The notes: generated from the letters alone by a model not told the origin. Numbered from the stretch's first letter, positions 11,374 to 56,230 are shown. The stretch is 64,000 bases of DNA from Candidatus Omnitrophota bacterium (GCA_028715415.1 JAQURX010000005.1:64043-128042), one strand, 5' to 3'. Numbers and translations: made by a program.

Positions 11374-11481
11374 TTTGTCATTCCCTCTAACTTTGTCATT
11401 CCCGCGAAAGCGGGAATCTACGCTATAGCCTGGATCCCTGCTGGAGTTTATCCCTGCGAAAGCAGGGACAGGGATGACAAC
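11374..11481. repeat. Palindromic repeat element: half-site + hairpin A (ATTCCCGCGAAAGCGGGAAT) + complex hairpin-B variant
   Basis: tttgtcattccc...tgtcattcccgcgaaagcgggaatctacgctat...tggatccctgctggagtttatccctgcgaaagcagggacagggatgacaa; same B variant recurs at 24107-24160. Confidence 0.85.
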
Positions 11482-11630
11482 TCAATAAAAAAAGCAATTC
11501 CTCGTGATTGAAGAATTGCTTAAAAATCCAATTACTCTTTTTCCCATCACCACCTCCTCGTTTAACTGAGGACGTGCTATTTTATTGCCATTCTCATTAT
11601 ATGCTAATTTGAAAAAAAGTAAACAAAAAA

Positions 11631-11697
11631 ATAGGGACACATCCTATTTATTTTGTTAAATCGTCCTACAAAAAAACAACCTAGGATGTGTCCCTAT
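11631..11697 (-). terminator. Long stem-loop (15-bp stem ATAGGGACACATCCT / AGGATGTGTCCCTAT, ~37-nt loop) followed by a T-rich run on the minus strand; putative terminator of the PilZ gene
   Basis: Perfect 15-bp inverted repeat directly 3' of the 11703 stop; minus-strand downstream sequence is tttttttgtttacttttttt. Confidence 0.4.
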
Positions 11698-11702
11698 ATA
11701 TT

Positions 11703-12047
11703 CTAATATTTATTCTGGGAGGAGATTGTTCTTAAGACTAAGGGGATTGGTTTTAGTTTTTGGCCTTCTAACTTTACACCAAGTTTGAAAGAATCATTTC
11801 CAGTTGGATGTATCCAGATTACCTTGCCTTTTGTGCGGATAGACTCTCCATTATCAGGCATTGCCAACCATAAATCCAAAGTACTTCCTACGCTGACGTT
11901 ATCCTGAGTAATCAAACAAAGGCCGTCTTGGCTTATGTCGTTTGTTTTAGCAATACCGGAAGAATTTTCGTTGTTTAGACGGTAGGTGACAGACAATGGG
12001 ACCATGAATCTAACGCTTTCCCGTTTTTCATTAAAAAGGTGGCTCAT
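11703..12047 (-). CDS. PilZ domain c-di-GMP receptor protein
   Basis: RxxxR (RESVR) and DxSxxG (DISQDG) motifs at the spacing typical of PilZ. Confidence 0.7.
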   Translation of the reverse strand: MSHLFNEKRESVRFMVPLSVTYRLNNENSSGIAKTNDISQDGLCLITQDNVSVGSTLDLWLAMPDNGESIRTKGKVIWIHPTGNDSFKLGVKLEGQKLKPIPLVLRTISSQNKY

Positions 12048-12160
12048 CAGCTCCCCTTTCGTAATTCACCGTAGTAAGTTTAACTTGAATTTATACAGAT
12101 TACAAGGTAAAGAGGCCTTAAAAAGAAAACGCTTTCTTTTTACCTATTACATTGGCAGGC

Positions 12161-13363
12161 TTACTTATTAAGCCCTTCTTTAAATCTTTTTGTCAAGGCT
12201 GGAACAATCTCAAAAACGTCTCCCACAACTCCATATGTAGCAACTTTAAATATAGGAGCTTCGGGGTCTTTATTAATCGCAACAATGATTTTTGATGATT
12301 GCATTCCAACTAAATGCTGGATTTGGCCGGAGATTCCGCAGGCAATATATATTTTAGGGGCAACTGTCCTTCCAGTCTGGCCAACTTGATGAGAATACGG
12401 CATCCACCCGGCATCTACCGCAGCGCGAGACGATCCTACGGCAGCTCCAATTGCATGAGCAAGCTCTTCTAAAATCTTAAAATTCTCTTTTGCGCCCATG
12501 CCCCTTCCACCGGAAACAATGATATCCGCTTCCGCAATATTAACAAGCGATTCGATCTCTTCAACTATATCTATTAATTTCGTGCGGGAAGCATACAGTG
12601 TTTTATCAAAACTCTCCTTGATAATCTTTCCCTTGCGATGCTTATCAGGAGCCATTGGCTGCATTACTTTGTGCCTTACTGTTGCCATCTGAGGGCGGAA
12701 ATTAGGGCTAATGATAGTAGCCATAATATTTCCGCCAAAAGCTGGTCTTGTTTGAAGGAGTATTTTTTTCTCAGGGTCAATATCTAACCCTGTGCAATCT
12801 GCTGTAAGGCCTGCCTTAATATTAATCGCAACTCTTGAGATTAATGAGCGGCCGATTGCAGTTGCACCGCACAGCAGGATTTCTGGTTTGTACTTCTTTA
12901 TTAACTCAACAAGGATATTTGTATAAGGCTCGTCTTGGAAATTAGCAATCTCCGGCGCTTGGACAAGATAAATATTATCAGCACCATGCCAGACTAACTC
13001 ATCCAATTGATCATCAAGATCATTCCCGATCAAAACACCGCTTACCTGGCAATTTAATTTTTTGGAAAGCTCCTGCGCTTTTCCAAGAAGCTCATAGGAA
13101 ACAGACTGCACTTTACCGTTTTTCTGTTCAATAAAAACCCAAATTCCTTTGTAATCCTTGATATTCGGCAAAACACAAGTATTCTGAGGCTTCTCCAACA
13201 AAATTGCCTTAAATTTACATGCGCTTACGCAAGCTCCGCAAAGATTGCATTTATTAAAATCAATGACTGCTTTCTTATCTATTATGCGTATCGCACCAAA
13301 CGGACAAGTTTTTACACACAACGAACAACCAGTACATTTTTCAATAATAATTTGAATGGCCAT
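12161..13363 (-). CDS. etfA: Electron transfer flavoprotein alpha subunit with N-terminal 2x[4Fe-4S] ferredoxin domain
   Basis: CTGCSLCVKTCP and CNLCGACVSAC clusters, then ETF-alpha FAD-binding domain. Confidence 0.85.
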   Translation of the reverse strand: MAIQIIIEKCTGCSLCVKTCPFGAIRIIDKKAVIDFNKCNLCGACVSACKFKAILLEKPQNTCVLPNIKDYKGIWVFIEQKNGKVQSVSYELLGKAQELSKKLNCQVSGVLIGNDLDDQLDELVWHGADNIYLVQAPEIANFQDEPYTNILVELIKKYKPEILLCGATAIGRSLISRVAINIKAGLTADCTGLDIDPEKKILLQTRPAFGGNIMATIISPNFRPQMATVRHKVMQPMAPDKHRKGKIIKESFDKTLYASRTKLIDIVEEIESLVNIAEADIIVSGGRGMGAKENFKILEELAHAIGAAVGSSRAAVDAGWMPYSHQVGQTGRTVAPKIYIACGISGQIQHLVGMQSSKIIVAINKDPEAPIFKVATYGVVGDVFEIVPALTKRFKEGLNK

Positions 13364-24099: not shown

Positions 24100-24106
24100 A
24101 TTTTAC

Positions 24107-24284
24107 TGGATCCCTGCTGGAGTTTATCCCTGCGAAAGCAGGGACAGGGATGACAATCGCATGTCATTCCCGCGCCCTTCTGTCATTCCCGCGTTCTTCA
24201 TGTCATTCCCGCGAAAGCGGGAATCTACGCTATTTAGTGGATCCCTGCTTTCGCAGGGATGACATTGCCCTGCAGGGATGACAG
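24107..24284. repeat. Composite palindromic element filling the oppA-oppB intergenic region
   Basis: B-variant hairpin + three TGTCATTCCCGCG(CCCTTC) half-sites + hairpin A + hairpin B + extra CCCTGCAGGGATGACA. Confidence 0.85.
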
Positions 24285-29834: not shown

Positions 29835-29860
29835 CATTTCTTAATTAGTATAATAATTCT

Positions 29861-30941: not shown

Positions 30942-31087
30942 ATTTTCTTCCTCCTTATGCCCAGCAAGGGCACACTGGCGCAAATCCGATAAGCGCCAGG
31001 TGCTACAACAATAGACGAAGAAACTTGCAAAATCTAACACAAAAAAAGCAAAAAAAAGCGGAGAGAATTTCTTCTCTCCGCTAATAT

Positions 31088-37649: not shown

Positions 37650-38377
37650 TAATTTCTACTAAATTTGTATTTAATAACTAAAATAAATAACTTAAATCCA
37701 TCAATAATATATCGCTTAAACATCCTTTTAGGTTCAATAATTATGCGCCACAGCCATTCGAGGTGTATCAAACGCATGAATTTGGGAGCACGTGGGATGG
37801 TTCCAGACAAAAAATCCAATAATGCACCCACACCTAAACATAATCTAGGATTTAAATGTTCTCTATTTCTTGCAATCCATTTCTCTTGCAATGGTACACC
37901 CATAGCAACAAAGAGAACATCTGCTCCAGAAGAATTTATCTTCTCAATAACTTGATTATCATCCTTAAAATATCCTGAATGAGTCCCAACAATGGTAATA
38001 TTGGGAATTTTCTTACGCATATTGTCTGCTGCTTTTTTTGCAACCCCTTCCTTACCACCAAGGAAGAAAATTTTATATCTAAATTCGGTTAATTTTTCCA
38101 TTAAAACTGGACAGAAATCTGTTCCATTACAATTATCCAGCATTTTCTTGCCAAAAAACCAAATGATAAGTCGTAAACCTACGCCATCAGGGAGAACCAT
38201 GTCAGCGTTATTAAGCACATTAATATACTCATTATCTGTAAAAGATTTATAAACACAATCTGAATTCAAAAAGAAAACGGTTGACCTTTTTTTCAGCTTT
38301 ATGAAATTCATCACCGAATCAATGGCTTCCGAAAAATGTAAAATATTGCAATTTAGCAAAATAAATTTTACCATCAT
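37649..38377 (-). CDS. WecB/TagA/CpsF family glycosyltransferase (second tandem paralog)
   Basis: 242 aa; KIFFLGGKEGV, GVPLQEKW. Confidence 0.8.
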   Translation of the reverse strand: MMVKFILLNCNILHFSEAIDSVMNFIKLKKRSTVFFLNSDCVYKSFTDNEYINVLNNADMVLPDGVGLRLIIWFFGKKMLDNCNGTDFCPVLMEKLTEFRYKIFFLGGKEGVAKKAADNMRKKIPNITIVGTHSGYFKDDNQVIEKINSSGADVLFVAMGVPLQEKWIARNREHLNPRLCLGVGALLDFLSGTIPRAPKFMRLIHLEWLWRIIIEPKRMFKRYIIDGFKLFILVIKYKFSRN

Positions 38378-38378
38378 T

Positions 38379-39491
38379 TTATGTTCGCCATCCTGAAATA
38401 AATTTAAAAAACTTTGGAGAGAATTTTTGGATTAAAAATCCAAAAATCAAACAAATAGATATTGTAAAAATTATGTTTAAACAAAACAATAAAAATAAAT
38501 CTAAACTACAAGTAGGTAAGTATAATCTAAATAAAAGCTTGCGCATTATTGTCATGATTGGTTCATGTGTAGCAAATATAAAAAATGAAAAAAACGAAAG
38601 TTTTCTCAATAGGCCAACGTCTTTCAACCCACTATTCATCAAATTCAAGAAAAAAAGAACCCAAATTATAACAAACAAATTATGTAAGATTCGGCTAAAA
38701 CCAAACTTACCAAAAATTGCTATTAAATGAGCCTCAAACAAAGCAGAAACAACACTTAAAAACAATATCTGTTTCTTAAACCTTAGAATTTTTTTAAAAT
38801 CGAATTTGCTTATAGTTAAATAACCTCCTACCGCGAAAAAAAATAGTGGCGTAAAATGCCCAAAACCACTAAGAAACAATCTAAAAGGAATAGCCACTCT
38901 CGATAACCATAGTATTCCTAGAATAATAAGTGTAATCCTAGAGAAATTCTTTAATAAGTACTGTAGAATAGGAGCAATTAATACACACAAGAATAAATCC
39001 CTAAGAAACCAGAATTGGGAAACAAACGGCCATCTAGTAATACCAAGAATAGCATTTATAATAGAAAATATATTTGCATCCGGTAGCTTCCAATGACCTT
39101 GAGTAAAAAAATTACTGAGGCATGGTGTTTTATTGCAAAAATAAAGAAAAATAAGGATAATCGAGTTCCAGAATACTAAAGGAACTATAATGGTAGAAAC
39201 GCGTGATCTAAGCTTTCTAAAATAATCATCTTTTGTTAAATAATTTCTAAAAAAAAGTAACCCTGAAATAATAAAGAAAACTGGAACTGCAGCCCTAACT
39301 ACAGTATTAGTTATTAACGCAACCAAATATAAAAGCCAATAATCTTGTTGAAACGAATATGTAACATCAGAAAATCTAATTTTAAAATTGTTAGAATGAA
39401 TTAACACTATACAAATAATAAGTAAAAACTTCAAAACATTTATATTCCATAAATATTCAGTCTCGGGTGAATGATCAAATTTATTTTTCAT
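38379..39491 (-). CDS. Acyltransferase family 3 (OatA-like) membrane protein
   Basis: 370 aa, ~10 TM, N-terminal FLLIICIVLIHS motif. Confidence 0.6.
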   Translation of the reverse strand: MKNKFDHSPETEYLWNINVLKFLLIICIVLIHSNNFKIRFSDVTYSFQQDYWLLYLVALITNTVVRAAVPVFFIISGLLFFRNYLTKDDYFRKLRSRVSTIIVPLVFWNSIILIFLYFCNKTPCLSNFFTQGHWKLPDANIFSIINAILGITRWPFVSQFWFLRDLFLCVLIAPILQYLLKNFSRITLIILGILWLSRVAIPFRLFLSGFGHFTPLFFFAVGGYLTISKFDFKKILRFKKQILFLSVVSALFEAHLIAIFGKFGFSRILHNLFVIIWVLFFLNLMNSGLKDVGLLRKLSFFSFFIFATHEPIMTIMRKLLFRLYLPTCSLDLFLLFCLNIIFTISICLIFGFLIQKFSPKFFKFISGWRT

Positions 39492-39493
39492 TC

Positions 39494-40708
39494 TTAATTA
39501 TTTAGCTTTTCATATAAGTCATTCAAAACTTTTTCTGGAACAAATTCAGCAATTGAAGACACACAATTCACTTTCGAATACCTTTCTCTATTTATCACTA
39601 CTTTATTAATACTATTTGTCAATTCTTCAACAGTCCCTGAATAAGCAATCTCTCCTGAGAAACCCGCTGTTATTACTCTCTCGACCTCTCCTACGCAAGT
39701 TGAGACTACTGGTAACCCAGAACCTAATGCCTCTAAAACACTAATTGGCATACCTTCAAAGTTACTTGTTAAGACAAAAACATCGGAAGCCCTATAAAAA
39801 TCCGCAACAATCATTTGCGTCAAATTTCCTAGTAAATAAACACAGTTTCTTAAATTATGCTTATCAACGTAGCACTCTAATTGACCACGTAAATTTCCAT
39901 CTCCTACTATAATAAGTACTGCATTATCATTTTTTTCTCTAAATTCAAGGAAGGTTTCTACCAATTTCATAGGGGCCTTTTGAAGCTGAAGCCTACCAAC
40001 AAATAAAACCCAAGGACCATTACTAGTTATAATTTTAAACTCCTTTTCCAAACGGTTCTTTATTAATTCGCTTTTTTCAACGTTCAATGGAAAAAATACT
40101 TTACTATCTACCCAAGTAGGAATAAATTTCATTTTATTCTTTAGTTTAGGGTATCGTTTATTATAGAAGTTTAAACTATTTATATTAACTGAAAAAATGA
40201 AATTAAACTTATCTAAAATTATACTTTCCAAAAAGTAATAAAGTTTAGGAAAATTACTCCACAAAACCTCACTATTGCCTTTTTTAAGTTGCTTTAACAT
40301 ATCATTATGGATAACAAAAACTTTTTTTGACTTCCATTTCAAAAATAAAATTGCTGGTTCAATTCTATTAAAGAATAATACCGATTTTGGAATAAGCTTT
40401 AAATGGAAAAGTAGAAAAAGAGTAAAACGTAATGACAAAGGAACTAATGATTTAATATTTTCGTTTTCTTCAATAAATAATGGATAAAAATAAATACTTT
40501 TACCATCAAGCTCAATTTTTTGTAGAATCCTAACTTTTCGTATATTATTATCTGAAGTAACACCAATGTAAAAAAACGTAAAATTCGATGGTGCATATTT
40601 TATTATGCCTTTAATAAAAGACTCAACCCCACCAACCTTAGGACCCAAAGGGTCAGCAGGATGAATAACTGTAACAATATTTCTATTATTTAATTGCGGA
40701 AATCTCAT
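39494..40708 (-). CDS. Glycosyltransferase family 4 (GT-B)
   Basis: EGMPISVLEALGSGLPVVST EX7E-type motif. Confidence 0.8.
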   Translation of the reverse strand: MRFPQLNNRNIVTVIHPADPLGPKVGGVESFIKGIIKYAPSNFTFFYIGVTSDNNIRKVRILQKIELDGKSIYFYPLFIEENENIKSLVPLSLRFTLFLLFHLKLIPKSVLFFNRIEPAILFLKWKSKKVFVIHNDMLKQLKKGNSEVLWSNFPKLYYFLESIILDKFNFIFSVNINSLNFYNKRYPKLKNKMKFIPTWVDSKVFFPLNVEKSELIKNRLEKEFKIITSNGPWVLFVGRLQLQKAPMKLVETFLEFREKNDNAVLIIVGDGNLRGQLECYVDKHNLRNCVYLLGNLTQMIVADFYRASDVFVLTSNFEGMPISVLEALGSGLPVVSTCVGEVERVITAGFSGEIAYSGTVEELTNSINKVVINRERYSKVNCVSSIAEFVPEKVLNDLYEKLNN

Positions 40709-41837
40709 TAAATATCCTTGGAATTTGAATTTTCCAATTCAAAATATTAAAGTTTTCGTTAACCCTACAAAATCCCTTTTCACCCATAACTTTCCTTAAC
40801 TCATCGTTCTTTAATATATTTGATAACCTTGAAGAAAACAATTCAACATCTCCAAAAGGCACCAAATATCCGGTTTCATTATCCTTAATAATTTCTGCAG
40901 GTCCACCGTTATTAAAAGACACGACAGGCAAAGAATAGCTCATGCCTTCTATAATACAATTTCCAAATGGCTCATTAAAAGAAGTTAACATTAAAACATC
41001 AGCTACCAACAAAAACTCTTCAATATTATTAACATGACCGGGCATCATAACATTATCTTGAAGATTAAGATTATCAACAAGTTTTAGAAAGAATTCTCTT
41101 AACTCGCCATTTCCAAGGAAAACAAAACAAACATCTTTTCTTTGCAACAAAATCCTTTTCAATATTTCAATTGCTAAATCGTATCTTTTTTCACTTCTAA
41201 ATGCTGCAATCATCAAAACAATATATTTAAAATTCTCTAAGTTCAATTTTAATTTCAACAAATTCTTTTCTGTTTTATCAAGATTTGTCATTTTTTTAAC
41301 TTCAATACTATTTTGCAAAATAAATATTCTCTTGTTTCTTGGTAAAGTTTTCGCGGTAAATTCAGAATTAGCTATAAAAAAATCAACGAATAAATGATAA
41401 AATATTTTTTTAAGAAACCAAAACTTACTATGTAGAGATGCCCATCTTTCATACCAAATAACTTTTACTCCAAAAATTTTCGAAAACATTGCAGCATAAA
41501 AACGTTCTAGCCCAAACTGAACAATTACACAATCAATCTTATAATTTTTTATAATTTCTTTAAATATAAAATAATCTTTTATTAAATTGAATTTATATAA
41601 CTTTTTAGTAACAAAAGTTATCTTACATTTCTTAAGCTCAGTAACATAAACAGGTTCATTCAAAGAGCCTACATTAATACTGTTTTTGTATACATTGAAA
41701 CAAGAACGTACATCTTGAACCAGCCAAACAACAGAATAACCCTCCTCCTGCAAAATCTCAGTCAAATGAAAAGAAAGTTTTTCAACAGTTGAAAAAGTAT
41801 CACTTAAAAAACCAGGTATCAATAAGACATTTTTCAT
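40686..41837 (-). CDS. Glycosyltransferase family 4
   Basis: EPFGNCIIEGMSYSLPVVSFNNGGPAEII. Confidence 0.8.
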   Translation of the reverse strand: MKNVLLIPGFLSDTFSTVEKLSFHLTEILQEEGYSVVWLVQDVRSCFNVYKNSINVGSLNEPVYVTELKKCKITFVTKKLYKFNLIKDYFIFKEIIKNYKIDCVIVQFGLERFYAAMFSKIFGVKVIWYERWASLHSKFWFLKKIFYHLFVDFFIANSEFTAKTLPRNKRIFILQNSIEVKKMTNLDKTEKNLLKLKLNLENFKYIVLMIAAFRSEKRYDLAIEILKRILLQRKDVCFVFLGNGELREFFLKLVDNLNLQDNVMMPGHVNNIEEFLLVADVLMLTSFNEPFGNCIIEGMSYSLPVVSFNNGGPAEIIKDNETGYLVPFGDVELFSSRLSNILKNDELRKVMGEKGFCRVNENFNILNWKIQIPRIFNEISAIK

Positions 41838-42922
41838 CTCTTAATAATCCCTATCTCTTTATAAAAATTTAGAGTTTTGGTAGCTACTTCAATCCATGAC
41901 AACTCATTTTTAGTCATATGAAAAGAATTCTTACCCATAAGAAGTCTTTTTTCTTTGTTTTTAATCAAAAAAATCACTTTTTCTGCCAAAGAATTAATAT
42001 CGCGAGGAGAAATAATAAAACCAGTAACTCCATCTTTAACTACTTCCGGAAGACTCCCTACGCTTGTAGCTATAACAGGTTTTTTAAAAGCGTAAGCAAT
42101 CGGGACAATTCCACTTTGAGAAGCTTCAATATAAGGCAAAACAACTAAACAGCATTTCTGAAAGAGTTGAGAGACTTTATTATTATCTATATAAGAATTT
42201 ATTATTTCAAAGCTTGTTCTGTTTACAATTAGCTTTTCATACTCCTTAAGCAATTCTCCTTCACCAGCTATACAAATCTTAATATTTGGAATTTCTTTTT
42301 TTATCAACGGTTCTGCTTTAATTAAATATTGGAGCCCTTTGTATTCGAGAATCCTACCAAAAAAAAGAACTGTTGCTTCCTCCTCTTCAATAAGCTGATT
42401 ATCAATCCTACTAAAAATTGAGAATTCGCCATGCGGAATTACTGCAACTTTTTTTAAATCTGCCTTATATTTACGTATAAACTCATCTTTTATCTTATTT
42501 CCATGGACAATAAATCCATCGGCAAACCTAATTATTCTTTCCCTTAAAGGCAAAATAGATGTCATCTTATCTCCTTCATGCGGAGTAACATCATGTATAG
42601 TTACAATTAATTTACTTTGTTTATTAAGCAGAGGAAGAAGAAAATTAAACCATACATTTCCACCTTGAACATGAATAATACTGGGTTTCAATTTATTAAG
42701 CTTTAAAAAAACACCGCTTATTACAAAGAAATTTATAGGATTACTCATTCTCCGATATTTAAAAGTTTTTAGCTTCAATAAACTGCTAATCTGACTAGAA
42801 TATTTACACGCTAATCTTTCAGGTACAAACAAGACTATTTCAGTCCCTTCCAAATCAGCTAAAGCATTAGCTAATTCAATAGTATACTCAATATACCAAA
42901 AAGCTACCAATGCCACTTTCAT
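41834..42922 (-). CDS. Glycosyltransferase family 4
   Basis: EASQSGIVPIAYAFKKPVIATSVGSLPEVV. Confidence 0.75.
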   Translation of the reverse strand: MKVALVAFWYIEYTIELANALADLEGTEIVLFVPERLACKYSSQISSLLKLKTFKYRRMSNPINFFVISGVFLKLNKLKPSIIHVQGGNVWFNFLLPLLNKQSKLIVTIHDVTPHEGDKMTSILPLRERIIRFADGFIVHGNKIKDEFIRKYKADLKKVAVIPHGEFSIFSRIDNQLIEEEEATVLFFGRILEYKGLQYLIKAEPLIKKEIPNIKICIAGEGELLKEYEKLIVNRTSFEIINSYIDNNKVSQLFQKCCLVVLPYIEASQSGIVPIAYAFKKPVIATSVGSLPEVVKDGVTGFIISPRDINSLAEKVIFLIKNKEKRLLMGKNSFHMTKNELSWIEVATKTLNFYKEIGIIKR

Positions 42923-44175
42923 GAAAAATCCTCAATTAATCTCAAAAGTTTAAATCTTAACTTAGCTAGTATTCTAAAATATATATTTCCAAAATAATTT
43001 AGTAAAAAATACTTGAAAAAAACATTTTTTGACAAAAAATTATTAGACAAAATTAATGAATTATACCCCAAACTTGAATCAATATTTAAGAACTTTTTGT
43101 ATTCACCTAAGAGAAAGGCTTTGCGCCATCCGTATGCACCAGTTTTGAATTTTACCTTTTCTAACTGAGAACGCAAAACTTCTTTTTTCTCGATATGATT
43201 TAAATAAATACACCCATTTTCAACACATTTATCTAACAACTGTGACCCTTTAGACGTTCGGGCGATACCAATTGAAGTACCTTGATTATCTTCGCTAAAT
43301 CGTGGCAACCAAGCATCTCCTATTGAAATATCACCTTCTCGTCCAAATAAATCATCACAAACAAAACAGTAATCAGAAATAAAATAATAATTAGCAAAAT
43401 ATTTATTCCAATACTCTTTTGAAGGCAAAAATCTATCCTGTCCAGAGCAAGAAATAGACATTCCTCCCGGCCAGCCCCTGCCCCTATAATCTAACTTTTT
43501 TACCGATTCTTTTTTGATTTTATATTTATCCAAAATAAAATCGGTTCCTTTAAAATTAGGAACGTTTCCACAAAAAATCGTAATAACGTATTTAATTTTA
43601 GTATGTAGTTCGGGCAGAAATTCCATTGCTTTTTTTAGTCCCTTTACGTGACACGGTAAACCTATATAAAGACAATCCTCACTTTTCCTCTTAGCAATCT
43701 CTTTAAGAATTACATTTAAAGAGACAGGGCAATATTTTGCGCCCTTATTTTTCATAATATCCTTTACTGTAGTACTTAGCGTGGCTCGATACCGCAATGG
43801 ATTATCTTCATTTGGAATAACATTAACAACGCTACTTACGATTCCTTGTTCAAGACAAAAACTACTTATAGCTGTAGCTAATCCTCCAGAAGTTGATTCA
43901 ATCCGTAAATGATAATTTGCTGAGCATCCGTAAAAACAATACTGCATAGAACCAAAAAAATCATTAGGGTTTTCAATTCCTTTTAAGAGCGAATTCTGAG
44001 GGCAAATATTTAGACATAGACCACACTCTGAACAAATAGATTCATCAATTTTAGGAAGATTGATTCCCTGCTCAAAATCTTCCTTTATTTGAATAGCATC
44101 GAGTGGACACACACTGTAACAAGTACCACAACCAGTACAAATTCTTTTTTTTGTAATCTTATCTAAAATACTCAT
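42919..44175 (-). CDS. Coenzyme F420 hydrogenase/dehydrogenase beta-subunit-like Fe-S protein (polysaccharide-locus type)
   Basis: N-terminal CTGCGTCYSVCP and CSECGLCLNICP ferredoxin motifs plus FrhB-like C-terminal domain; the usual partner of a pyruvyl transferase. Confidence 0.65.
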   Translation of the reverse strand: MSILDKITKKRICTGCGTCYSVCPLDAIQIKEDFEQGINLPKIDESICSECGLCLNICPQNSLLKGIENPNDFFGSMQYCFYGCSANYHLRIESTSGGLATAISSFCLEQGIVSSVVNVIPNEDNPLRYRATLSTTVKDIMKNKGAKYCPVSLNVILKEIAKRKSEDCLYIGLPCHVKGLKKAMEFLPELHTKIKYVITIFCGNVPNFKGTDFILDKYKIKKESVKKLDYRGRGWPGGMSISCSGQDRFLPSKEYWNKYFANYYFISDYCFVCDDLFGREGDISIGDAWLPRFSEDNQGTSIGIARTSKGSQLLDKCVENGCIYLNHIEKKEVLRSQLEKVKFKTGAYGWRKAFLLGEYKKFLNIDSSLGYNSLILSNNFLSKNVFFKYFLLNYFGNIYFRILAKLRFKLLRLIEDFS

Positions 44176-45440
44176 TTAAAAATTCCCATATTCTCAAAAA
44201 TATGACTGATATTCTCTAAAGCTCTTCCTTTTTGAGTAGCTGCATTTTTTTTTAAAGAATAAGTAATGTTTTGGTAATCATTTTCAACTTGTTCCACCAA
44301 AATTAAAGTTTTTTTCATAACCTCGCTTAAATTATTTTCTCTTATGTTTACAATATATTGAGATAGACCCATTTTATCTCCTATTAACCCCTCAAATTTA
44401 TCGTTATATGACCAACAAATAACTGGAACTCCCGAACTAATTGCTGCAACTGCGGCATGCATACGAAAAGTAATTAAAAAATGCAACCTTGCAATTATGC
44501 CTTTCAAAATTGCTCCATTATAATATTCTGGTAACAACGTAATATCGTTTTTATTTTTAACAGCTTTATAGATTTCTTTACAGACTTCTAGATCATCATT
44601 ATCTACAGAAGAAATTACATGAGGAATCAATAAAACTTTAAACTTGTAATTCTCAATTAGAATATCAATGACACCAGCAACGGAACGTATATACTCTTTT
44701 TTCATATCTGCATTACTAGCATTATCAGGAAACCATTTATATACTATAGCGCTAGGAGACAAACCAATTAACTTGGAGTTTGGTAAAATAACATTCTTAA
44801 ATAAAACATTTTCCGCTCCCTCAATATCAGGTTCCAATAATAAAGCATTATCGGTTCCCAAAACTAAATTTTTTCTTAAAAACTTGTGTCTAATCATATA
44901 GTCGAAACTTCTTTCTTCTCTTAACACAATTACATTTGCTTTAGACAATATAAAACGAGTTAAAAATAAATTGATTCTTCCTTTGATAGGACCGATAGTT
45001 TGACCCAGTAGAATAATTTTCTTTTTAGCAATCATTCCACAAAAAAGAGAATAAAGACGCAGATACAAAGATAAAACCGTATAATCTGTACTAATACCAT
45101 CACCACTTAAATCAACAATAATATCACAATCATTATAAGCGTTTAGTGATTCATGTTTTGATTTCATCTTAACAAAGCGAGAAAATACGAGAAAAACAAT
45201 ATTCCAAATTACGCTTCTAATAAAAACTAACTTATTTTTCTTTTGACCTACCCAATAATCGTTTAAGAAATTTATTTTCTTATTTTTTATAATTTTTTTG
45301 CATTCCTCTTTCTTATTTGTAAGCACATTAAGTTCAAAATCACAAAAATTATTCGAAATCCCTTCATAAACTCCAAGTAACATTGCAAACTCGCCGTTAT
45401 TGAAAATATTACCTGTTCCAGTTATTAGTATTTTCTTCAT
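44172..45440 (-). CDS. Polysaccharide pyruvyl transferase family protein (CsaB/WcaK-like)
   Basis: 422 aa; PS_pyruv_trans-like sequence; co-located with the FrhB-like gene. Confidence 0.6.
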   Translation of the reverse strand: MKKILITGTGNIFNNGEFAMLLGVYEGISNNFCDFELNVLTNKKEECKKIIKNKKINFLNDYWVGQKKNKLVFIRSVIWNIVFLVFSRFVKMKSKHESLNAYNDCDIIVDLSGDGISTDYTVLSLYLRLYSLFCGMIAKKKIILLGQTIGPIKGRINLFLTRFILSKANVIVLREERSFDYMIRHKFLRKNLVLGTDNALLLEPDIEGAENVLFKNVILPNSKLIGLSPSAIVYKWFPDNASNADMKKEYIRSVAGVIDILIENYKFKVLLIPHVISSVDNDDLEVCKEIYKAVKNKNDITLLPEYYNGAILKGIIARLHFLITFRMHAAVAAISSGVPVICWSYNDKFEGLIGDKMGLSQYIVNIRENNLSEVMKKTLILVEQVENDYQNITYSLKKNAATQKGRALENISHIFENMGIFK

Positions 45441-46891
45441 TATAAATTATTTTTTTTAATCGAGATAAGCTTAAAAACTGCAGCACTAAATAAGCATAAA
45501 AACCCAGAAAAAACGAGCGTAAGCCGAAATCCCCACCCTATTAAACCGTGCAACCAACAACACGCTATGCCTATCCCAATCGAACGAGAAAGTAACCATA
45601 TTGTAGAATCATTACTAAAAGGAAACTTGAAATACGCAAAAATTGTTCTCAAAAGAAAAAGCAAAAACATCAAAAACCCTAATAAACCGGCTTCTGCAGC
45701 GTATAGTAAATATATATTGTGAACCGGATCGGGGATCCTAACTGAAACCCTATCTGAAGTAGTATCATACTTGGGTGCCACAAGAACATAATTATTCATC
45801 CCTACACCTAAAATTGGATTATGAGCTATAATATTGAAAGCGACAGAATACATTTTTGGCCTAGCAGAAATTGATCCCAAATCGTTATTAAAACGACTAA
45901 TAATCCTCTTTCCACCTAAAGAAACTGATAAAATAACTGCAAAGAAACAAATCAATAATACAAATTTTGGCAAAGCGATTTTGAAAGAACGTTGTATAAT
46001 AATTAAAAAAATAAAGTAGAATAAACCAATCGAAGTAAACAAGATACCCGCGCGCGAAACGGTAAGAATTAAAGCAAAGCAACCAAGAATAAAAGAAACA
46101 AAAGAAATAACTCTCCATTTTCTTTTTTCGTAAATCATTGAGGCAAAAGCTATAGGAATAACCAAAGAAGAAAACTTTGCAAAACCACTTGAATGACCAA
46201 ATGTACCTGAGGGTCTAAAAATATCTCCAACTACATCAAAAATGTGTACGCCAGCAGGAATTCTAAAAACCGGATGACCAACTAAGAACTCAATTAAAAT
46301 AAAACAAGATTGCAATATAAAGGCAATTAATAAGTTTCTTATAACAAATTTTAAATCATTAAATTCATCAAATAAGATTATAGCCAATAAAAATAACCAA
46401 ATAACTCTAAAAGTATCGATAATTTCAAGCCAAGGCAAAGTCTTATTAACAGCAGGAATCAAAGAAAGTAGTTCAAAAAAGGCAAGACCAAGTAATGGGA
46501 TGATACCACCAAGCACAGAAGAAGAAAATATTTTCTTCTTCTTATAAAAATTACTTCGCGCCAAAACAAAAAAAGAAACAAATAAAAATAAAAAATCGCT
46601 TGTATATATAACTAGCCTGTGTTCAAAAAAATTAATAGGGAATCCTGGATTTATCATTAAATTAAATACAATTAGACCTAGAATCATATTCTTACTATGT
46701 TTAAAGAATAAAGCTATAAACAAAGGAATAAACAATATACCCATGAGAACAAATTGAAAATATTTAAAACGATAAAATAAAGCATTAAAAACAATATTAC
46801 CAACGAACCAAGAAAATATAATAACGATAACGATATTCAAAAAATTATTTTTATTAATCATTTTCGAATGCGATTTGAGGTTTACCTTCAA
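45440..46891 (-). CDS. O-antigen ligase/polymerase (Wzy-like) membrane protein
   Basis: 483 aa, ~12 TM, large periplasmic loop; position in the locus. Confidence 0.5.
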   Translation of the reverse strand: MKVNLKSHSKMINKNNFLNIVIVIIFSWFVGNIVFNALFYRFKYFQFVLMGILFIPLFIALFFKHSKNMILGLIVFNLMINPGFPINFFEHRLVIYTSDFLFLFVSFFVLARSNFYKKKKIFSSSVLGGIIPLLGLAFFELLSLIPAVNKTLPWLEIIDTFRVIWLFLLAIILFDEFNDLKFVIRNLLIAFILQSCFILIEFLVGHPVFRIPAGVHIFDVVGDIFRPSGTFGHSSGFAKFSSLVIPIAFASMIYEKRKWRVISFVSFILGCFALILTVSRAGILFTSIGLFYFIFLIIIQRSFKIALPKFVLLICFFAVILSVSLGGKRIISRFNNDLGSISARPKMYSVAFNIIAHNPILGVGMNNYVLVAPKYDTTSDRVSVRIPDPVHNIYLLYAAEAGLLGFLMFLLFLLRTIFAYFKFPFSNDSTIWLLSRSIGIGIACCWLHGLIGWGFRLTLVFSGFLCLFSAAVFKLISIKKNNL

Positions 46892-48293
46892 TAAATACTA
46901 TTTGTTTAAAATATACCAAACTAAAAATATAAACTAACAATCCAAAAACAATTAGAATTACAAGCGTAAAAATGTTACTTTGTTTTAGAAAAAGCAAAAC
47001 TATGGAAATCGATAAAACCATTACCAAGCTGCTTAAAAAGATTGATTTTAAAGAAGAAAAATACTTTCTCATTTTTAAGTTAATTAAGGGCAATGTAATA
47101 TAATTAGTATAAAACGACCAAGCAACATTAAACAAAGTCAAAGTAAAAACAATCCAAAATATTCCGTTGGCTAAAGCAACGATAATAGAAGCAGCAGTTA
47201 ACAAAGCATGTAATAAACCTAGCCTAAAATGGAGGCCTGCTCTACCTTTAGACAATCTAATATTACCGGTTAGTTGTCCTCCTATAGCCTGCGCTAATCC
47301 ACTAAAACATAACAACTTAACTATAGGAGTGATAGCAATCCATTTATCTCCAAAAACTACTTTCACAAAAACATCTGTTAAAACAAATAATCCAAGCATT
47401 ACTGGAAAAGCAAGAATTGAAACAGCTTTTAGTAAATGAAGATAACCTAAAATTAACTTTTTTGCATCATTTTGAACCTTTGAAAAAACGGGAAAAATAA
47501 CTCTGGTAATAACACCAGAAACATTTTGCAAAGGTACTAACATAAGCTTATAGGCTAGCGAATAAAATCCTAAAGGACCATCGCCAAGAAATTTCCCTAT
47601 TAAGAGGAAATCTAAATTACGAGCAAAATAATTTATTGAGTTAAATCCAACCATAAAAATACTAAATTTAGATATTTCTTTGAGCGCCATCCAAGAAAGA
47701 ATAGCCCTTGGGCGCCAACTCGTAAGCAACCATAAAGAAAAACAATTTACCAAAGTAAAAACGAGAGATTGAATTACTAGACTCCAAACTCCATAACCTT
47801 TAAATGCCAATAATACCGCAAACAAACCAGATATTATTACTGAAACAAGATCGCGAATCATTAAACGTTTAAAATCAAGATTTTTAGTTAATATTGCTTG
47901 AGGAACGACCATTAAGGACGAAAACAAAAAATTAAAAGAAATTATTTTTATAATTAATGTTAACTCAGGCTTATTATAAAAAGCTGCTATAAATGGCGAA
48001 CAAAGAATAAAAAATAAAGTTAATAAAATACCAAAAATAATATTTACCCAAAAAGATGAAGAAAGGTGAATCTCGGTAATTTCTTGTTTTTGAATTAGTG
48101 CGCTACTAATTCCAAATTCTGATATTACAGCTGCAAAACCTGTAAATACTGTTGCCATACCTAGCAATCCAAAATCACTTGGTACTAATAATCTTGCTAA
48201 AATAGCAGTAATGATTAGCTGAAAACCTTGTTTCGAAACTTGAGAAATACCAGCCCAAGTAATTCCTTGCACCGTTTTTTTTCTAATGCTCAT
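46854..48293 (-). CDS. Polysaccharide flippase (Wzx, MOP superfamily)
   Basis: 479 aa, 12-14 TM, N-terminal GISQVSKQGFQLIITAILARLL typical of polysaccharide biosynthesis protein family. Confidence 0.65.
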   Translation of the reverse strand: MSIRKKTVQGITWAGISQVSKQGFQLIITAILARLLVPSDFGLLGMATVFTGFAAVISEFGISSALIQKQEITEIHLSSSFWVNIIFGILLTLFFILCSPFIAAFYNKPELTLIIKIISFNFLFSSLMVVPQAILTKNLDFKRLMIRDLVSVIISGLFAVLLAFKGYGVWSLVIQSLVFTLVNCFSLWLLTSWRPRAILSWMALKEISKFSIFMVGFNSINYFARNLDFLLIGKFLGDGPLGFYSLAYKLMLVPLQNVSGVITRVIFPVFSKVQNDAKKLILGYLHLLKAVSILAFPVMLGLFVLTDVFVKVVFGDKWIAITPIVKLLCFSGLAQAIGGQLTGNIRLSKGRAGLHFRLGLLHALLTAASIIVALANGIFWIVFTLTLFNVAWSFYTNYITLPLINLKMRKYFSSLKSIFLSSLVMVLSISIVLLFLKQSNIFTLVILIVFGLLVYIFSLVYFKQIVFIEGKPQIAFEND

Positions 48294-48451
48294 TTTAAAA
48301 AAAATGAATTAATTTTGGTAGAGTTTATTCTAAACAAAATAACTTTGTTCTATACAATCTGTTTTAAAGTTTAACTCGTTTATTAATTTAGGATTATTTA
48401 AACTATCACAACATCAATATGAAATTTTTATATCTACCTTAACAAGCTTAA

Positions 48452-49528
48452 TTAGATAAAACCAATTTTTTTTAAAATTTGTGAATTATTTCTTAAAATA
48501 ACCCTAAGAAATTTTATTAATGACCAACTCAAAAAAATAATTATACATACCCTAGCAAATATGATTCCTAAATGAACAATAAAAGAATGATCTATACCTG
48601 GAAGAATTTTCTTTACTAAATTCATAAACAATAAATGTGTTAAGAAAATACCGAAAGATATTTGACCTAAATTCGAAACAATATTTTTTCGCATAAATGA
48701 CTTTCTATAAATAATAAATAATAAAATTATACTATTCGCATATAAAAATGAAGAAATCTTTATCTGAGATAAAGCGATTTGCAACAATTTGAATTTAGAA
48801 TTAATCAATTCTGCCTCTATGATTGAGCTCAAAAGAGTAATTATTAAAATAGTAAATAAAAAATACCTTAACCGCAAAAAGGGGTGTAGAATTAGTTCAT
48901 CATTATTTATCCCAATATAAATCCCTAAAGAATAGAAAAATATCCATCCCATGAAAGGAACAGCATAATAAGGAAATGATATTTGAATATTTAGACTAGC
49001 TAGAAAATAGATTAAGATTATATAACTTAGGTTAATAAATAATGCTACCTTTAAAAGCAATTTATTATAATAGAGAAAGAAAATTAACCGAGTCAATAAA
49101 AACAATTGTATTAATACAGGAATAAAGTATAACTGACCTGAAGCCTTACCAAAGAATATCGAAGAACATATATACTTTAGTGAAATTGTATTCTTTCGAG
49201 CAAAGATCAACAAATAGAATGTAGTCCAAATTAAGTACGGAACAAAAACTCCACTTAAGCGTCTCTTTAATAAACTTAATTTAGGAGATATGGATTTTAA
49301 CGAACTAAATCCCATCCAATACCCAGCCACCCATATAAAACCAGCAACTGCAAAATTAAAGACTTGTCTAAAAGCAATATCAAAATTAGCAAAGACATCA
49401 GAATTATTGCTACTATCAAAAGAATGAATACAAACCACAGAGATAATACAAATCCCTTTAAAAAAATCTAATGAAATATCTCTATCTTTCATGTTACGAA
49501 TTCCTGATTTTACAGAAATAACAGTCAC
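48452..49528 (-). CDS. Acyltransferase family 3 membrane protein
   Basis: 358 aa; FFKGICIISVVCIHS. Confidence 0.6.
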   Translation of the reverse strand: MTVISVKSGIRNMKDRDISLDFFKGICIISVVCIHSFDSSNNSDVFANFDIAFRQVFNFAVAGFIWVAGYWMGFSSLKSISPKLSLLKRRLSGVFVPYLIWTTFYLLIFARKNTISLKYICSSIFFGKASGQLYFIPVLIQLFLLTRLIFFLYYNKLLLKVALFINLSYIILIYFLASLNIQISFPYYAVPFMGWIFFYSLGIYIGINNDELILHPFLRLRYFLFTILIITLLSSIIEAELINSKFKLLQIALSQIKISSFLYANSIILLFIIYRKSFMRKNIVSNLGQISFGIFLTHLLFMNLVKKILPGIDHSFIVHLGIIFARVCIIIFLSWSLIKFLRVILRNNSQILKKIGFI

Positions 49529-49890
49529 CTTTTATAATCATCCTCTAAGCGCTCAATATCATCTTCACCGAAATAATCGCCGGTTTGGATTTCAATAAAT
49601 ATTAAATCTGTGGAACCGATATTTTTAATACGATGCTCGCAATTACGGGGGATATCAATATATTGCCCGACTGAAAGCTTATGTACTACACCATTTATTT
49701 CAACTTGCGCTTCTCCATGATGAATGAACCAATGCTCTTCGCGCTTTTTATGCCTCTGAAGGCTAAGGCGGCAGCCCTTAGAAACAGTGATTTCCTTAAC
49801 CTTGTGGTCTTCGCCGTTTAAAAGAACCTTATAATTGCCCCAAGGCCTCTCACCAATAGAAACTAAATATTCTCTTTGATATTCTTCCAT
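49525..49890 (-). CDS. Cupin domain protein (mannose-6-phosphate isomerase type II C-terminal-like)
   Basis: 121 aa; cupin motifs H..H.....E.....G and ...H around HKKREEHWFIHHGEAQVEINGV...CEHRIKNIG. Confidence 0.6.
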   Translation of the reverse strand: MEEYQREYLVSIGERPWGNYKVLLNGEDHKVKEITVSKGCRLSLQRHKKREEHWFIHHGEAQVEINGVVHKLSVGQYIDIPRNCEHRIKNIGSTDLIFIEIQTGDYFGEDDIERLEDDYKR

Positions 49891-49904
49891 AATTTATATA
49901 TTCT

Positions 49905-49983
49905 GGATTCCCGCTTTCGCGGGAATGACATTATTAATAGATTCCCGCTTTCGCGGGAATGACAGCCGCTGCGGGAATGACAA
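49905..49983. repeat. Repeat element, reverse orientation: 2x hairpin A (ATTCCCGCTTTCGCGGGAATGACA) + partial
   Basis: ggattcccgctttcgcgggaatgacattattaatagattcccgctttcgcgggaatgacagccgctgcgggaatgacaatag. Confidence 0.85.
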
Positions 49984-50263: not shown

Positions 50264-50281
50264 ACAGCCTCCTTTATTAAT

Positions 50282-50358
50282 AGATTCCCGCTTTCGCGGG
50301 AATGACACCGCTGCGGGAATGACACACTTACTGAATCCCTGCTTTCGCAGGGATGACA
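50282..50358. repeat. Repeat element, reverse orientation: hairpin A + partial A + hairpin B
   Basis: agattcccgctttcgcgggaatgacaccgctgcgggaatgacacacttactgaatccctgctttcgcagggatgacatt. Confidence 0.85.
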
Positions 50359-54249: not shown

Positions 54250-54250
54250 C

Positions 54251-55393
54251 CTAAAATTCCATCCTCAAACCACAAGTAACAGCAGTTCTGATATATTCTC
54301 TTGTTGGAACATTTGAACTTGTATCTGAATAGGTATAATTTAGAGTGGCTTTTAAATTTTTAGTTAAGTCGTAAGTTAAGCCTGCAGCAGCACCCACCAT
54401 TTTATCCGTTGTTTTGGTTGACTCATATTTTCCATTGCCATAAAAAGCAGTAATTGCTGTTCCGAGCCTGCGGGTAAGCTGGCGGCTAAAATTAAGCGAA
54501 CATCTCCAGGAATCAAGAATCTCCTTCGTATATGAATTAGTGTCGTAAAGCTTGGTAAAAGTAAAGGTGTTTGTGGTTGCTTCATCTATTTCATTCGTCA
54601 AAGACAGGAAAATATTCGCTCTTGTGTACTTTGTCCCATCGTAACCCTTAATAAAATCAATCCCCGGCCTTAAATCAGCGTAAAGCTGCCTTGTAAAATA
54701 CTGCCTTAACGCAGGCGCAATTGTATTCTTGCTGGACTTTGGCCCATTTTTAAACTTTCTTTGAGAATAATCATAGTTCATGTAAACAATTGAAGAAGAA
54801 TTAATGGCATAGTTAAGCCCCAGCCCACCTGAATTAAGATATGAATCAGAGATTGAATCCGTAGAATAGGTATACATATTATTTGAATACCTGACGTCTA
54901 AGTTAAGCTGCTTTGAAATATCGCGAAGATAATCAAAATTAATAGCGTTATTATAAAAACTATACCTTCCATCAAGCCTGCCGAATTCGTCTTCAAAACT
55001 GCGCGGCTCAAATGAATGATAAAAACTATCGGCTAAAGTTATCCTTTCATTTTTAGAAAGCTCCAAGAGGTAATTACCCCTTGCTCTTTCTGAAGTATTA
55101 TCAAAATTATGGTTTTTTACATAAAACTGGTGGGTTACATCTGCGCCTAATGATAAGCTTTGGATTCTTCCTTCATAAGTCAAATCTCCGCCTGCAGTAA
55201 CATTGGTGATATTATCATTGATTTTATTGATTGACTCATAGGTTATGTTGTCATCATAAGTCTGGCCAACATTAAAGCGGAATTTCTTATCAATTTTGGC
55301 AAAACAAACTTCTGAAAAACTCATAAATATTATGACAAAAAGACAAAACCGGGTAACCCTTAAAGCGACAGATTCAAAGTAAGCCTTTTTCAA
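54251..55393 (-). CDS. Outer-membrane beta-barrel protein (EPS-locus associated)
   Basis: Signal peptide, alternating amphipathic beta-strand pattern rich in Y/T/N, C-terminal ...GLRMEF aromatic terminus. Confidence 0.5.
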   Translation of the reverse strand: MKKAYFESVALRVTRFCLFVIIFMSFSEVCFAKIDKKFRFNVGQTYDDNITYESINKINDNITNVTAGGDLTYEGRIQSLSLGADVTHQFYVKNHNFDNTSERARGNYLLELSKNERITLADSFYHSFEPRSFEDEFGRLDGRYSFYNNAINFDYLRDISKQLNLDVRYSNNMYTYSTDSISDSYLNSGGLGLNYAINSSSIVYMNYDYSQRKFKNGPKSSKNTIAPALRQYFTRQLYADLRPGIDFIKGYDGTKYTRANIFLSLTNEIDEATTNTFTFTKLYDTNSYTKEILDSWRCSLNFSRQLTRRLGTAITAFYGNGKYESTKTTDKMVGAAAGLTYDLTKNLKATLNYTYSDTSSNVPTREYIRTAVTCGLRMEF

Positions 55394-55520
55394 GATTCCA
55401 TCCTTTTTTTAAGAAACAAAAACCCTTGACTATTATAGAGTTAAGTAAGTTTAGAAATTGGATTAAGAAGTTAAAGTATAACATTTCCAGGCGAAATGTC
55501 AACCTTTTTGTGCTAAATCT

Positions 55521-56015
55521 TTACCTATAATTGCAGAAGCTCAGTGGCAGGGAGAACTCAATACTTCTTAGATGATTGATTACTGCCTGCAAATCATCCT
55601 TTTTTGGAGAAGAAACGCGGATTTTCTCTCCTTCAATCTGGGTTTGGACCTTGATTTTTGACTCTTTTATGATGCCTACAAGCTGCTTTGCCTTATCTTG
55701 GGCAATTCCCATGGTAATTTCAGCAGACTGCCGGATAGTCCCTTCAAAAGCCTTCTCAGGATCACTAAAAACCAAAGATTTAAGCGACACTCCTCTTTTT
55801 GCAAGGCGGGTTGCCAGGATATCCTTGAGCGCCCGGAGCTTGAAGTCGTCGTCGGCAACAAGGATAATCTTATTCTCGGCCTTATCAAAATTAATGCTGG
55901 ACTTTGAATCTTTAAAGTCATAACGCTGAGAAAGCTCTTTTATAGCTTGATTAACCGCATTGTCAACTTCCTGAAGATTGACTTCTGAAACTATATCAAA
56001 TGAAAAATTTGCCAT
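55521..56015 (-). CDS. yajQ: YajQ family (UPF0234) nucleotide-binding protein
   Basis: 164 aa; MANFSFDIVSEVNLQEVDNAVNQAIKE... conserved YajQ N-terminus. Confidence 0.8.
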   Translation of the reverse strand: MANFSFDIVSEVNLQEVDNAVNQAIKELSQRYDFKDSKSSINFDKAENKIILVADDDFKLRALKDILATRLAKRGVSLKSLVFSDPEKAFEGTIRQSAEITMGIAQDKAKQLVGIIKESKIKVQTQIEGEKIRVSSPKKDDLQAVINHLRSIEFSLPLSFCNYR

Positions 56016-56042
56016 TTAATACTCCTTTTATATTTGTCATTC

Positions 56043-56230
56043 CCGCCCCTGCTTCCGCAGGGGTAAACTGCAGCGGGAATCTACGCTATTTAGTGGATCC
56101 CTGCTTTCGCAGGGATGACAATCACATGTCATTCCCACATTATTTGTCATTCCCGCCCCTGCTTCCGCAGGGGTAAACTGCAGCGGGAATCTACGCTATT
56201 TAGTGGATCCCTGCTTTCGCAGGGATGACA
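56043..56230. repeat. Two tandem copies of a variant composite element in which hairpin A carries a nested hairpin (CCCCTGC-TTCC-GCAGGGG) in its loop
   Basis: tgtcattcccgcccctgcttccgcaggggtaaactgcagcgggaatctacgctatttagtggatccctgctttcgcagggatgaca x2, separated by a degenerate half-site (catgtcattcccacatta). Confidence 0.85.

Follow-up and report, generated by a model that had tools for sequence, protein, structure and literature searches.

Tagged hairpin repeats and a probable cognate Ssn-family nuclease gene in a Candidatus Omnitrophota genome

Among the short extragenic hairpins of bacteria, the CGTC-tagged repetitive extragenic palindromes (REPs) described by Di Nocera et al. (BMC Genomics 2013) are built from an unpaired tag (CGTC, frequently changed to TGTC), a stem of 8-9 bp that begins with AT, a loop of 4-5 nt and a 3-nt tail, and they occur mostly as head-to-head dimers with the tags outside (PMC3733652). 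The same study equated Neisseria dRS3 and Rickettsia RPE-6 with its family CGTC-1, listed five phyla, Omnitrophota not being among them, described no half-units or long-loop forms, and argued that many REPs are transcribed; the class was concluded to be without a dedicated transposase, and no CGTC repeat was found to flank any tyrosine transposase (PMC3733652). A partner for the CGTC-tagged REPs, dRS3 and the Rickettsia palindromic elements (RPEs), all without a known enzyme in 2013, was supplied by Chenal et al. (Nat Commun 2025, PMC11893778), who identified the oriented form of dRS3, named NTS (CGTCATTCCCGCGMAVGCGGGAATCYRG), as the site of SsnA, a 94-aa single-domain GIY-YIG nuclease. Here we consider 64,000 nucleotides from a Candidatus Omnitrophota bacterium (GCA_028715415.1, JAQURX010000005.1:64043-128042; this whole stretch is called the window, and positions are counted from its first letter), in which a dense family of tagged hairpins surrounds a gene, ssn, whose product is a homologue of SsnA.

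SsnA binds its hairpin only when the DNA is single-stranded (ssDNA), and its cut falls a few nucleotides 5' of the hairpin and is confined to the tagged strand; neither double-stranded DNA nor RNA is a substrate, RNA is not bound, and mutation of Y6, Y17 and E64 abolished the nuclease activity of the enzyme (PMC11893778). In Neisseria meningitidis the enzyme reduces transformation by NTS-bearing DNA. Homologues of ssnA are found across phyla, 71% of them with a nearby repeat of the wider type called SRM and 42% with SRM on both sides, and the arrangement NTS-ssnA-NTS was noted as insertion-sequence-like (PMC11893778). That paper left the origin and the spread of the repeats open, and its coverage was mainly of cultured Proteobacteria.

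Anatomy and classification of the repeat units

The initial annotation of the window had proposed a dense family of palindromic elements at 13 listed loci, covering about 2% of the sequence, and both statements hold: all 13 loci carry the element, and their total length of 1282 bp corresponds to 2.0%. In all there are 12 intergenic clusters, made up of 24 full hairpin units and about 22 truncated half-units; by chance none would be expected. Hairpin A (ATTCCCGCGAAAGCGGGAAT) is matched 12 times and hairpin B (ATCCCTGCTTTCGCAGGGAT) 10 times at no more than two mismatches, with 0 matches expected for either in 100 dinucleotide-preserving shuffles. Scanning the whole window for TGTCAT returned 44 tagged units of the form TGTCAT(T)CC, every one inside the listed loci and none outside them, and repeat finding on the window retrieved the same families. 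Two loci had been made to begin at 56043 and 56153, inside units whose true starts are 56035 and 56145; a copy reported at 31088 is present, although its tag is degenerate (TTTC).

All units follow one plan, consisting of an unpaired TGTC tag, an 8-bp stem beginning with AT, a 4-nt loop and a short tail. Unit A reads TGTC-ATTCCCGC-GAAA-GCGGGAAT-CTACGCTAT and is 33 nt long, while unit B reads TGTC-ATCCCTGC-GAAA-GCAGGGAT-CCAC; two stem positions are changed in B with respect to A, each compensated on the opposite arm, and both have a C directly after the palindrome. Of the 14 full A units, 11 end in the 9-nt tail CTACGCTAT, among them units without a nearby gene. Eight A-B dimers were found, with the tags pointing outward in all eight. 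Folded as ssDNA, A reaches -9.0, B -8.6 and the dimers about -17.5 kcal/mol, with z-scores from -4.2 to -5.8. The full units show no strand bias with respect to GC skew (11 on the plus strand, 13 on the minus strand). Hairpins A and B and their dimers had been correctly recognised as modules by the initial annotation, which missed however two further forms: the half-units, discussed below, and the long-form units, in which the loop is made of an inner hairpin followed by TAAACTSCAG. The window contains four of the latter (11430-11479, 24106-24155, 56035-56089 and 56145-56199). Long-form units are also seen in the metagenome loci L005, L007, L032 and L062; the linker TAAACTSCAG is constant across these unrelated loci and the inner hairpin is variable.

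Written with a 3-nt tail, A (TGTC-ATTCCCGC-GAAA-GCGGGAAT-CTA) and B (TGTC-ATCCCTGC-GAAA-GCAGGGAT-CCA) share with CGTC-1 the unpaired terminal tag, for which TGTC is allowed, the 8-bp stem starting with AT, the 4-nt loop and the tail, and the eight head-to-head dimers with all tags outside reproduce its dimer organisation. The proposal of a modular family resembling REPs or miniature inverted-repeat transposable elements (MITEs), with TGTCAT...ATGACA terminal inverted repeats, therefore fits the CGTC-1 class (PMC3733652). Unlike CGTC-1 as published, the window has an enzyme gene, half-units, long-loop forms and an Omnitrophota host. The likeness of hairpin A to Neisseria dRS3, also suggested at first, is equally well founded: dRS3 is CGTC-1 (PMC3733652), and A is near-identical to the NTS consensus, the A unit at 49903-49930 agreeing with CGTCATTCCCGCGMAVGCGGGAATCYRG at 27 of 28 positions (the first base differs), while most other A copies differ at the first and last bases. 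The dRS3 architecture ATTCCC-N8-GGGAAT fits the A units but not the B units (ATCCCT...). The Neisseria dRS3/NIME repeats are characterised by a Neisseria host, RS spacers that form NIMEs and service as integration site of the Nf prophage, whereas the host here is an Omnitrophica and the window contains no prophage genes. The window repeats belong to the same superfamily as Neisseria dRS3 and are not the Neisseria element; the non-Neisseria origin that had been argued from the sequence agrees with the source, which is a Candidatus Omnitrophica metagenome-assembled genome (MAG).

In a MAG it could be suspected that the copies are produced by the assembly, through collapsed or duplicated reads, a doubt already raised in the initial annotation, and a 110-bp stretch is in fact exactly duplicated in tandem at 56031-56250, where cluster 12 sits. 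This duplication may have arisen in the genome, by tandem amplification, or in the assembly, and it is the sole suspect place in the window. The twelve clusters, however, have unique flanks, differing unit variants and differing half-unit arrays, and the same units are seen in independent assemblies from other phyla. Because flanks and variants differ, the copies are not to be taken as artefacts outside that stretch, and we give this explanation a practically negligible probability.

An Rfam scan of the whole window at the gathering thresholds gave no matches, and a scan of genome contigs with the 29-mer formed by A and its tail found two MAG contigs only, from Gracilibacteria and Phycisphaerales, from which it follows that the GTDB representatives do not include the source species. 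The exact A 20-mer is also found in a Neisseria gonorrhoeae paper and at positions 486-508 of locus L083. On the Gracilibacteria contig (L001, 1520-1610) a recG-like helicase open reading frame (ORF) of 726 aa contains, in frame, two tagged hairpins, one of them an exact A unit, which translate as ...SVDSRFRGNDKER..., an intragenic insertion of the Rickettsia RPE type. Peptides derived from the repeats (SRFRGND and others) had no match in the literature. CRISPR arrays were rejected for the absence of regular spacers, and integron attC sites were considered and rejected as well.

The ssn gene and its flanking repeats

The initial annotation overlooked the probable cognate nuclease gene inside the main cluster. 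The ssn gene lies between clusters 3 and 4, where the repeats are densest, and in its product Pfam recognises GIY-YIG (E 1.6e-13) and no further domain. NCBI has an entry with 100% identity to it, from a Candidatus Omnitrophica MAG, and the protein aligns without gaps to the 94-aa SsnA orthologue of N. gonorrhoeae (54% identity over 89 aa, E 2e-36), so that Y8, Y19 and E66 of the window protein correspond to Y6, Y17 and E64 of SsnA; its placement in the Ssn family (cd10448) rests on the Pfam domain and on this alignment. A PDB sequence search with the ssn product found no relative, and no second copy or fragment of the gene was found within the window.

The last two ssn codons and the stop form ATAGCGTAG, the reverse complement of the A tail CTACGCTAT, and the stop codon lies inside the A unit 30005-30037; at the other end, the A half-units of cluster 4 begin 3 nt from the ATG. 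The gene is bracketed, with tags outward, by unit 30005-30037 on one side and by cluster 4, with its closing B unit 30397-30424, on the other. The earlier statement that all copies are intergenic is correct once ORF starts are set by the ribosome-binding site, but it overlooks this stop codon and the small genes lying between clusters. The gonococcal orthologue is itself a 94-aa ORF among 12 NTS units in 1.5 kb (tblastn of plasmid records; two chromosome-sized records).

The association was evaluated in a set of 80 metagenome loci with homologues 50-73% identical to the ssn product, from hosts of 28-68% GC. Their flanks repeatedly read TGTCAT-hairpin...ATG...stop...hairpin-ATGACA, and the 6-nt tag points outward on both sides in 42 of the 76 loci with enough flank, where about 1 is expected. 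We also applied a strict hairpin test (GTC, an 8-nt arm, a loop of at most 45 nt and a complementary arm, with at most one mismatch, within 100 nt), by which a tagged hairpin is found upstream in 33/79 loci and downstream, inverted, in 27/78, the background rate being 0.04 per 100 nt for each orientation. Stems vary from locus to locus while complementarity is kept, and the arm type follows protein similarity: ATTCC or ATCCC arms are seen with all homologues of at least 66% identity, and the homologues with ATTCT or ATTGC arms do not exceed 63%. The two closest homologues, in L003 and L004, have exact A-type units in their flanks, and those of L009 and L018 have exact B-type units.

Starting from the sequences, their folding potential as ssDNA, the protein homology and the association of gene and repeats in the window and in the 80 loci, all of which are directly established, we conclude that the repeats are very probably SRM, close to Neisseria NTS/dRS3 and of the CGTC-1 class, accompanied by their cognate Ssn-family GIY-YIG gene at 30029-30319 (minus strand). 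With the described system they have in common a small single-domain GIY-YIG protein in which the residues needed for SsnA activity are conserved, an oriented hairpin with a (C/T)GTC tag, a ATTCCCGC stem and a C after the palindrome, and a gene flanked by repeats. Unlike the published cases, the host is an uncultured Omnitrophica MAG of 37% GC, from a phylum not mentioned in PMC11893778, the tag is TGTC and not CGTC, and the window has A/B heterodimers, abundant half-unit arrays and a gene whose stop codon lies within a unit. The mechanism can be derived from the characterised Neisseria and Wolbachia enzymes. When DNA becomes single-stranded, during replication, during repair or as incoming DNA, each unit would fold into its 8-bp hairpin; Ssn, acting on the tagged strand alone, would then bind the hairpin together with the C that directly follows it and would cut a few nucleotides 5' of the TGTC tag, with no action on duplex DNA or RNA. 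For the host, ssDNA cut at these sites may modulate recombination near the flanked genes (those for PEP-CTERM proteins and a polysaccharide island), and the repeat clusters themselves would turn over rapidly.

Several points weigh against this interpretation. The activity of the window protein on A and B sites is predicted from its sequence, the evidence from its own host comes from the 64-kb window, and the sole role demonstrated for such an enzyme, the reduction of transformation by NTS-bearing DNA, is from naturally competent Neisseria. Target-site duplications were not seen at any cluster edge, and no clean pair of filled and empty sites was found, three comparisons of related loci having given only indels of the recombination or slippage type; for this reason mobility of the repeats can be proposed only conditionally. 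Finally, the window has a single ssn gene, and no B unit fits the published SRM pattern HGTCWYN(0-2)YYVSBRHN(0-5)WNVSBRGN(0-2)RNCYNB, which is matched by 10 A units (0.03 expected from shuffles). The pattern appears to be too narrow, rather than B foreign to the family, because B has the tag, the 8-bp stem and the 3' C, and flanks homologues in L009 and L018.

The general look of the window, with extragenic hairpins in inverted doublets and clusters, is also that of the REP/REPIN systems and of the bacterial interspersed mosaic elements (BIMEs) of Enterobacteria and Pseudomonas. These are similar in the recognition of hairpins as ssDNA and in an enzyme gene that is flanked by its own repeats and usually single-copy, and a gene for a REP-associated tyrosine transposase (RAYT, an IS200/IS605-type Y1 HUH transposase) mobilising the window repeats could thus lie elsewhere in the genome, outside the 64 kb. 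However, the tag is TGTC/CGTC here and GTAG in RAYT-associated REPs, of which it is the defining mark; the CGTC repeats of the 2013 study flanked no tyrosine transposase; the unassigned ORFs adjoining the clusters contain no Y1_Tnp domain; and the bracketed gene, here and in most of the 80 other loci, encodes a GIY-YIG nuclease, a hydrolytic enzyme, whereas the Y1 HUH transposase works through a covalent intermediate. The likeness is one of analogy, not of homology, and classical REPs mobilised by a RAYT are disfavoured as a very improbable explanation.

The stable stems may instead suggest that the units act primarily in RNA, as terminators, attenuators or stabilisers of mRNA 3' ends, like the E. 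coli REPs in malE-malF. Many clusters lie between same-strand genes, and in an Opp/Nik-type ABC operon cluster 2 (24106-24283) takes up all the space that separates the gene for the substrate-binding protein from that for the permease, a classic REP position; moreover, a GNRA loop is available on each strand, and many REPs are transcribed according to PMC3733652. No hairpin unit, however, scores as an intrinsic terminator and none precedes a T-run, for which terminators were rejected, and the Rfam scan gave no support. The remark of the initial annotation on a GNRA tetraloop in RNA is correct but probably beside the point, since the characterised SsnA acts on ssDNA and has no RNA binding (PMC11893778). 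A role in RNA would also not explain why the unpaired tag is conserved, why the orientation is strand-specific and why a nuclease gene is linked to the units. As the primary function it seems to us quite improbable, and an RNA effect could be a by-product of the units.

Half-units, gene-less dimers and turnover

A half-unit consists of the tag, the 5' arm and a spacer of 5-8 nt, without the 3' arm; half-units follow each other with a period of 17-20 nt, in the same orientation as the adjacent full unit. In the window 21 of them lie 5' of full units and 1 lies 3'; the corresponding counts in other loci, which belong to several lineages, are 15 and 3, for a total of 36 against 4, and the excess lies on the side where SsnA cuts. 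A text search of PMC3733652 and PMC11893778 found no description of half-units in either paper. As for their origin, after a cut by Ssn on the 5' side of a unit the upstream end may be resected in the 3'-to-5' direction, which would truncate an upstream direct unit, and slippage would then amplify the product. Alternatively the stacked 5' halves are possibly functional, offering alternative cut sites, because each of them can pair perfectly with the single 3' arm.

The ends of the A-B dimers are the ends of the ssn cassette, and the dimer spacer keeps ATAGCGTAG, that is the last 9 nt of the ssn ORF. On the plasmid pRheCIAT894e of Rhizobium sp. CIAT894 (L084, 880-3400), an ssn cassette is followed by two gene-less copies, in which the retained cassette sequence extends beyond the hairpins into the subterminal parts, by about 20 nt at the 5' end and about 32 nt at the 3' end. 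Since the ssn 3' end is found in the dimer spacers and gene-less copies exist in Rhizobium, an origin of the dimers from gene-carrying cassettes is supported, and the 63-bp A-B dimers look like gene-less, MITE-like derivatives of the ssn cassette. Like MITEs derived from insertion sequences they keep both terminal inverted repeats of the parent, together with the 9 nt of the ssn 3' end; unlike them they show no target-site duplication, and transposition can only be supposed.

Comparison of L037 with L057 revealed a 112-bp indel whose ends fall within two directly oriented units, and comparison of L006 with L020 gave indels of 5-6 nt within unit arms; it follows that clusters turn over quickly by recombination or slippage. 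These two pairs, the Rhizobium plasmids K1/93 and L51/94, and CIAT894 and BT04 were all tried as clean filled/empty pairs and rejected, having only repeat-bounded indels or non-syntenic neighbours.

The order TGTCAT-hairpin...ssn...hairpin-ATGACA resembles an insertion sequence. It is conceivable that hairpin-ssn-hairpin is a mobile element that is active by means of its single-strand GIY-YIG nuclease, with the A-B dimers as its MITEs and the half-units as scars of Ssn cleavage and of subsequent resection, rejoining and slippage, and we put this forward as a tentative and rather unlikely scenario. To our knowledge, GIY-YIG nucleases are not known as transposases in bacteria. If true, the scenario would imply a mechanism of transposition or homing not yet demonstrated in bacteria, and the half-unit arrays would be a sequence record of how a widespread class of repeats proliferates.

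The units could also be mainly integration or recombination targets of another element. Neisseria filamentous phages integrate at dRS3, and the window repeats might serve in the same way as dRS3 does for Nf prophages and an IS110-family recombinase. The reference list of PMC11893778 includes Kawai et al. 2005, on the integration of Neisseria filamentous phage by its own transposase, and an IS4 element is inserted inside another SRM dimer of the Rhizobium sp. CIAT894 plasmid. Against such a role, none of the clusters in the window has a prophage, integrase or IS110-type gene next to it, and a search of 50,697 phage records found no ssn homologue, so that we attach hardly any probability to it.

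Clusters, neighbouring genes and significance

The position and composition of the clusters, with the genes bracketed by them, are reported in Table 1.

Table 1. Repeat clusters and bracketed genes in the window
Feature	Coordinates	Strand	Composition and position
Cluster 1	11376-11479	.	half-unit 11376, A 11394-11426 (+), long-form B 11430-11479 (-); dimer with tags outward
Cluster 2	24106-24283	.	long-form B 24106-24155 (-), two A half-units, A 24201-24233 (+), B 24237-24264 (-), B half-unit
Cluster 3	29859-30037	.	B 29859-29886 (-), four A half-units (period 17), A 30005-30037 (+)
ssn	30029-30319	-	96-aa single-domain GIY-YIG nuclease homologue; ATG 30319-30317, stop TAG 30031-29
Cluster 4	30323-30424	.	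two A half-units, A 30361-30393 (+), B 30397-30424 (-)
ORF6N gene	30429-30941	-	KilA-N-like DNA-binding; bracketed by clusters 4 and 5
Cluster 5	31087-31168	.	A 31087-31119 (+) with degenerate tag TTTC, B 31123-31150 (-), B half-unit
Cluster 6	32619-32741	.	A 32619-32651 (+), B 32655-32682 (-), three B half-units (period 18)
Cluster 7	34346-34409	+	two A half-units, A 34385-34409; tail CCAT, not CTACGCTAT
Second ORF6N paralogue	34435-34989	-	shares 55-58% identity with the first; bracketed by clusters 7 and 8
Cluster 8	35070-35138	+	two A half-units, A 35106-35138
Cluster 9	36851-36903	+	one A half-unit, A 36871-36903; left edge of low-GC polysaccharide island
Cluster 10	49903-49982	-	A 49903-49930, A 49937-49964, half-unit; right edge of polysaccharide island
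Cluster 11	50280-50358	-	A 50280-50307, half-unit, B 50331-50358
Cluster 12	56035-56230	.	two tandem copies of long-form A (+) with B (-), one half-unit between

The window has a GC content of about 37%, a GC skew that is negative throughout, and genes nearly all on the minus strand, among them alaS, smc, an Etf-ferredoxin fusion, the Opp/Nik ABC operon, exosortase and PEP-CTERM genes and a polysaccharide locus. The exosortase/PEP-CTERM genes are surrounded by eight clusters. The polysaccharide locus is an island of about 13 kb (36900-49890) with low GC (29-33%) and of Wzx/Wzy type, which includes two WecG, three GT1 and two acyltransferase_3 genes, a pyruvyl transferase, a Wzy-like polymerase and a flippase. 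At its two edges stand inverted A units whose tags face outward (36871 on the plus strand, 49930 on the minus strand), an arrangement comparable with that of NTS-gene-NTS at Neisseria surface genes.

Some clusters lie close to expression signals. Cluster 1 ends 5 nt from the ribosome-binding site of the gene at 11025-11357 (minus strand), and cluster 5 is placed between the stop codon of the gene at 31175-31825 and a terminator-like hairpin (31082-31057, minus strand), the sole strong one of the region, which abuts it. Perfect 12/12 matches to sigma-70-type promoters are found at 34330-34303 and 32557-32530 (both on the minus strand), just downstream of clusters 7 and 6.

The ORF6N gene next to ssn may be cargo or a plain neighbour. 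An ORF6N gene is directly upstream of the ssn homologue in L035; because this adjacency is seen in only 1 of the 80 other loci, ORF6N was rejected as a regular component of the system. At 12161-13363 (minus strand) an Etf alpha subunit carries an N-terminal 2x[4Fe-4S] ferredoxin domain, and this fusion, with its EtfB-like and acyl-CoA-dehydrogenase-size neighbours, suggests an anaerobic lifestyle.

The system itself was already explained in 2025, and what is added here is a new phylum and one small undescribed feature, the 5' half-unit arrays. Omnitrophota are bacteria with small cells and a possible dependence on hosts. The pair of enzyme and site is extended to these uncultured organisms and, through the 80 metagenome loci, to hosts of 28 to 68% GC, and the published search pattern appears to miss a real type of unit, B. 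The window offers a compact example in which gene, cassette ends, gene-less dimers and half-units stand side by side and in which, as in Neisseria, the clusters flank cell-surface genes, here those of the PEP-CTERM system and of the polysaccharide island. Ssn enzymes are of practical interest as programmable ssDNA cutters, and A and B would represent two new candidate specificities.

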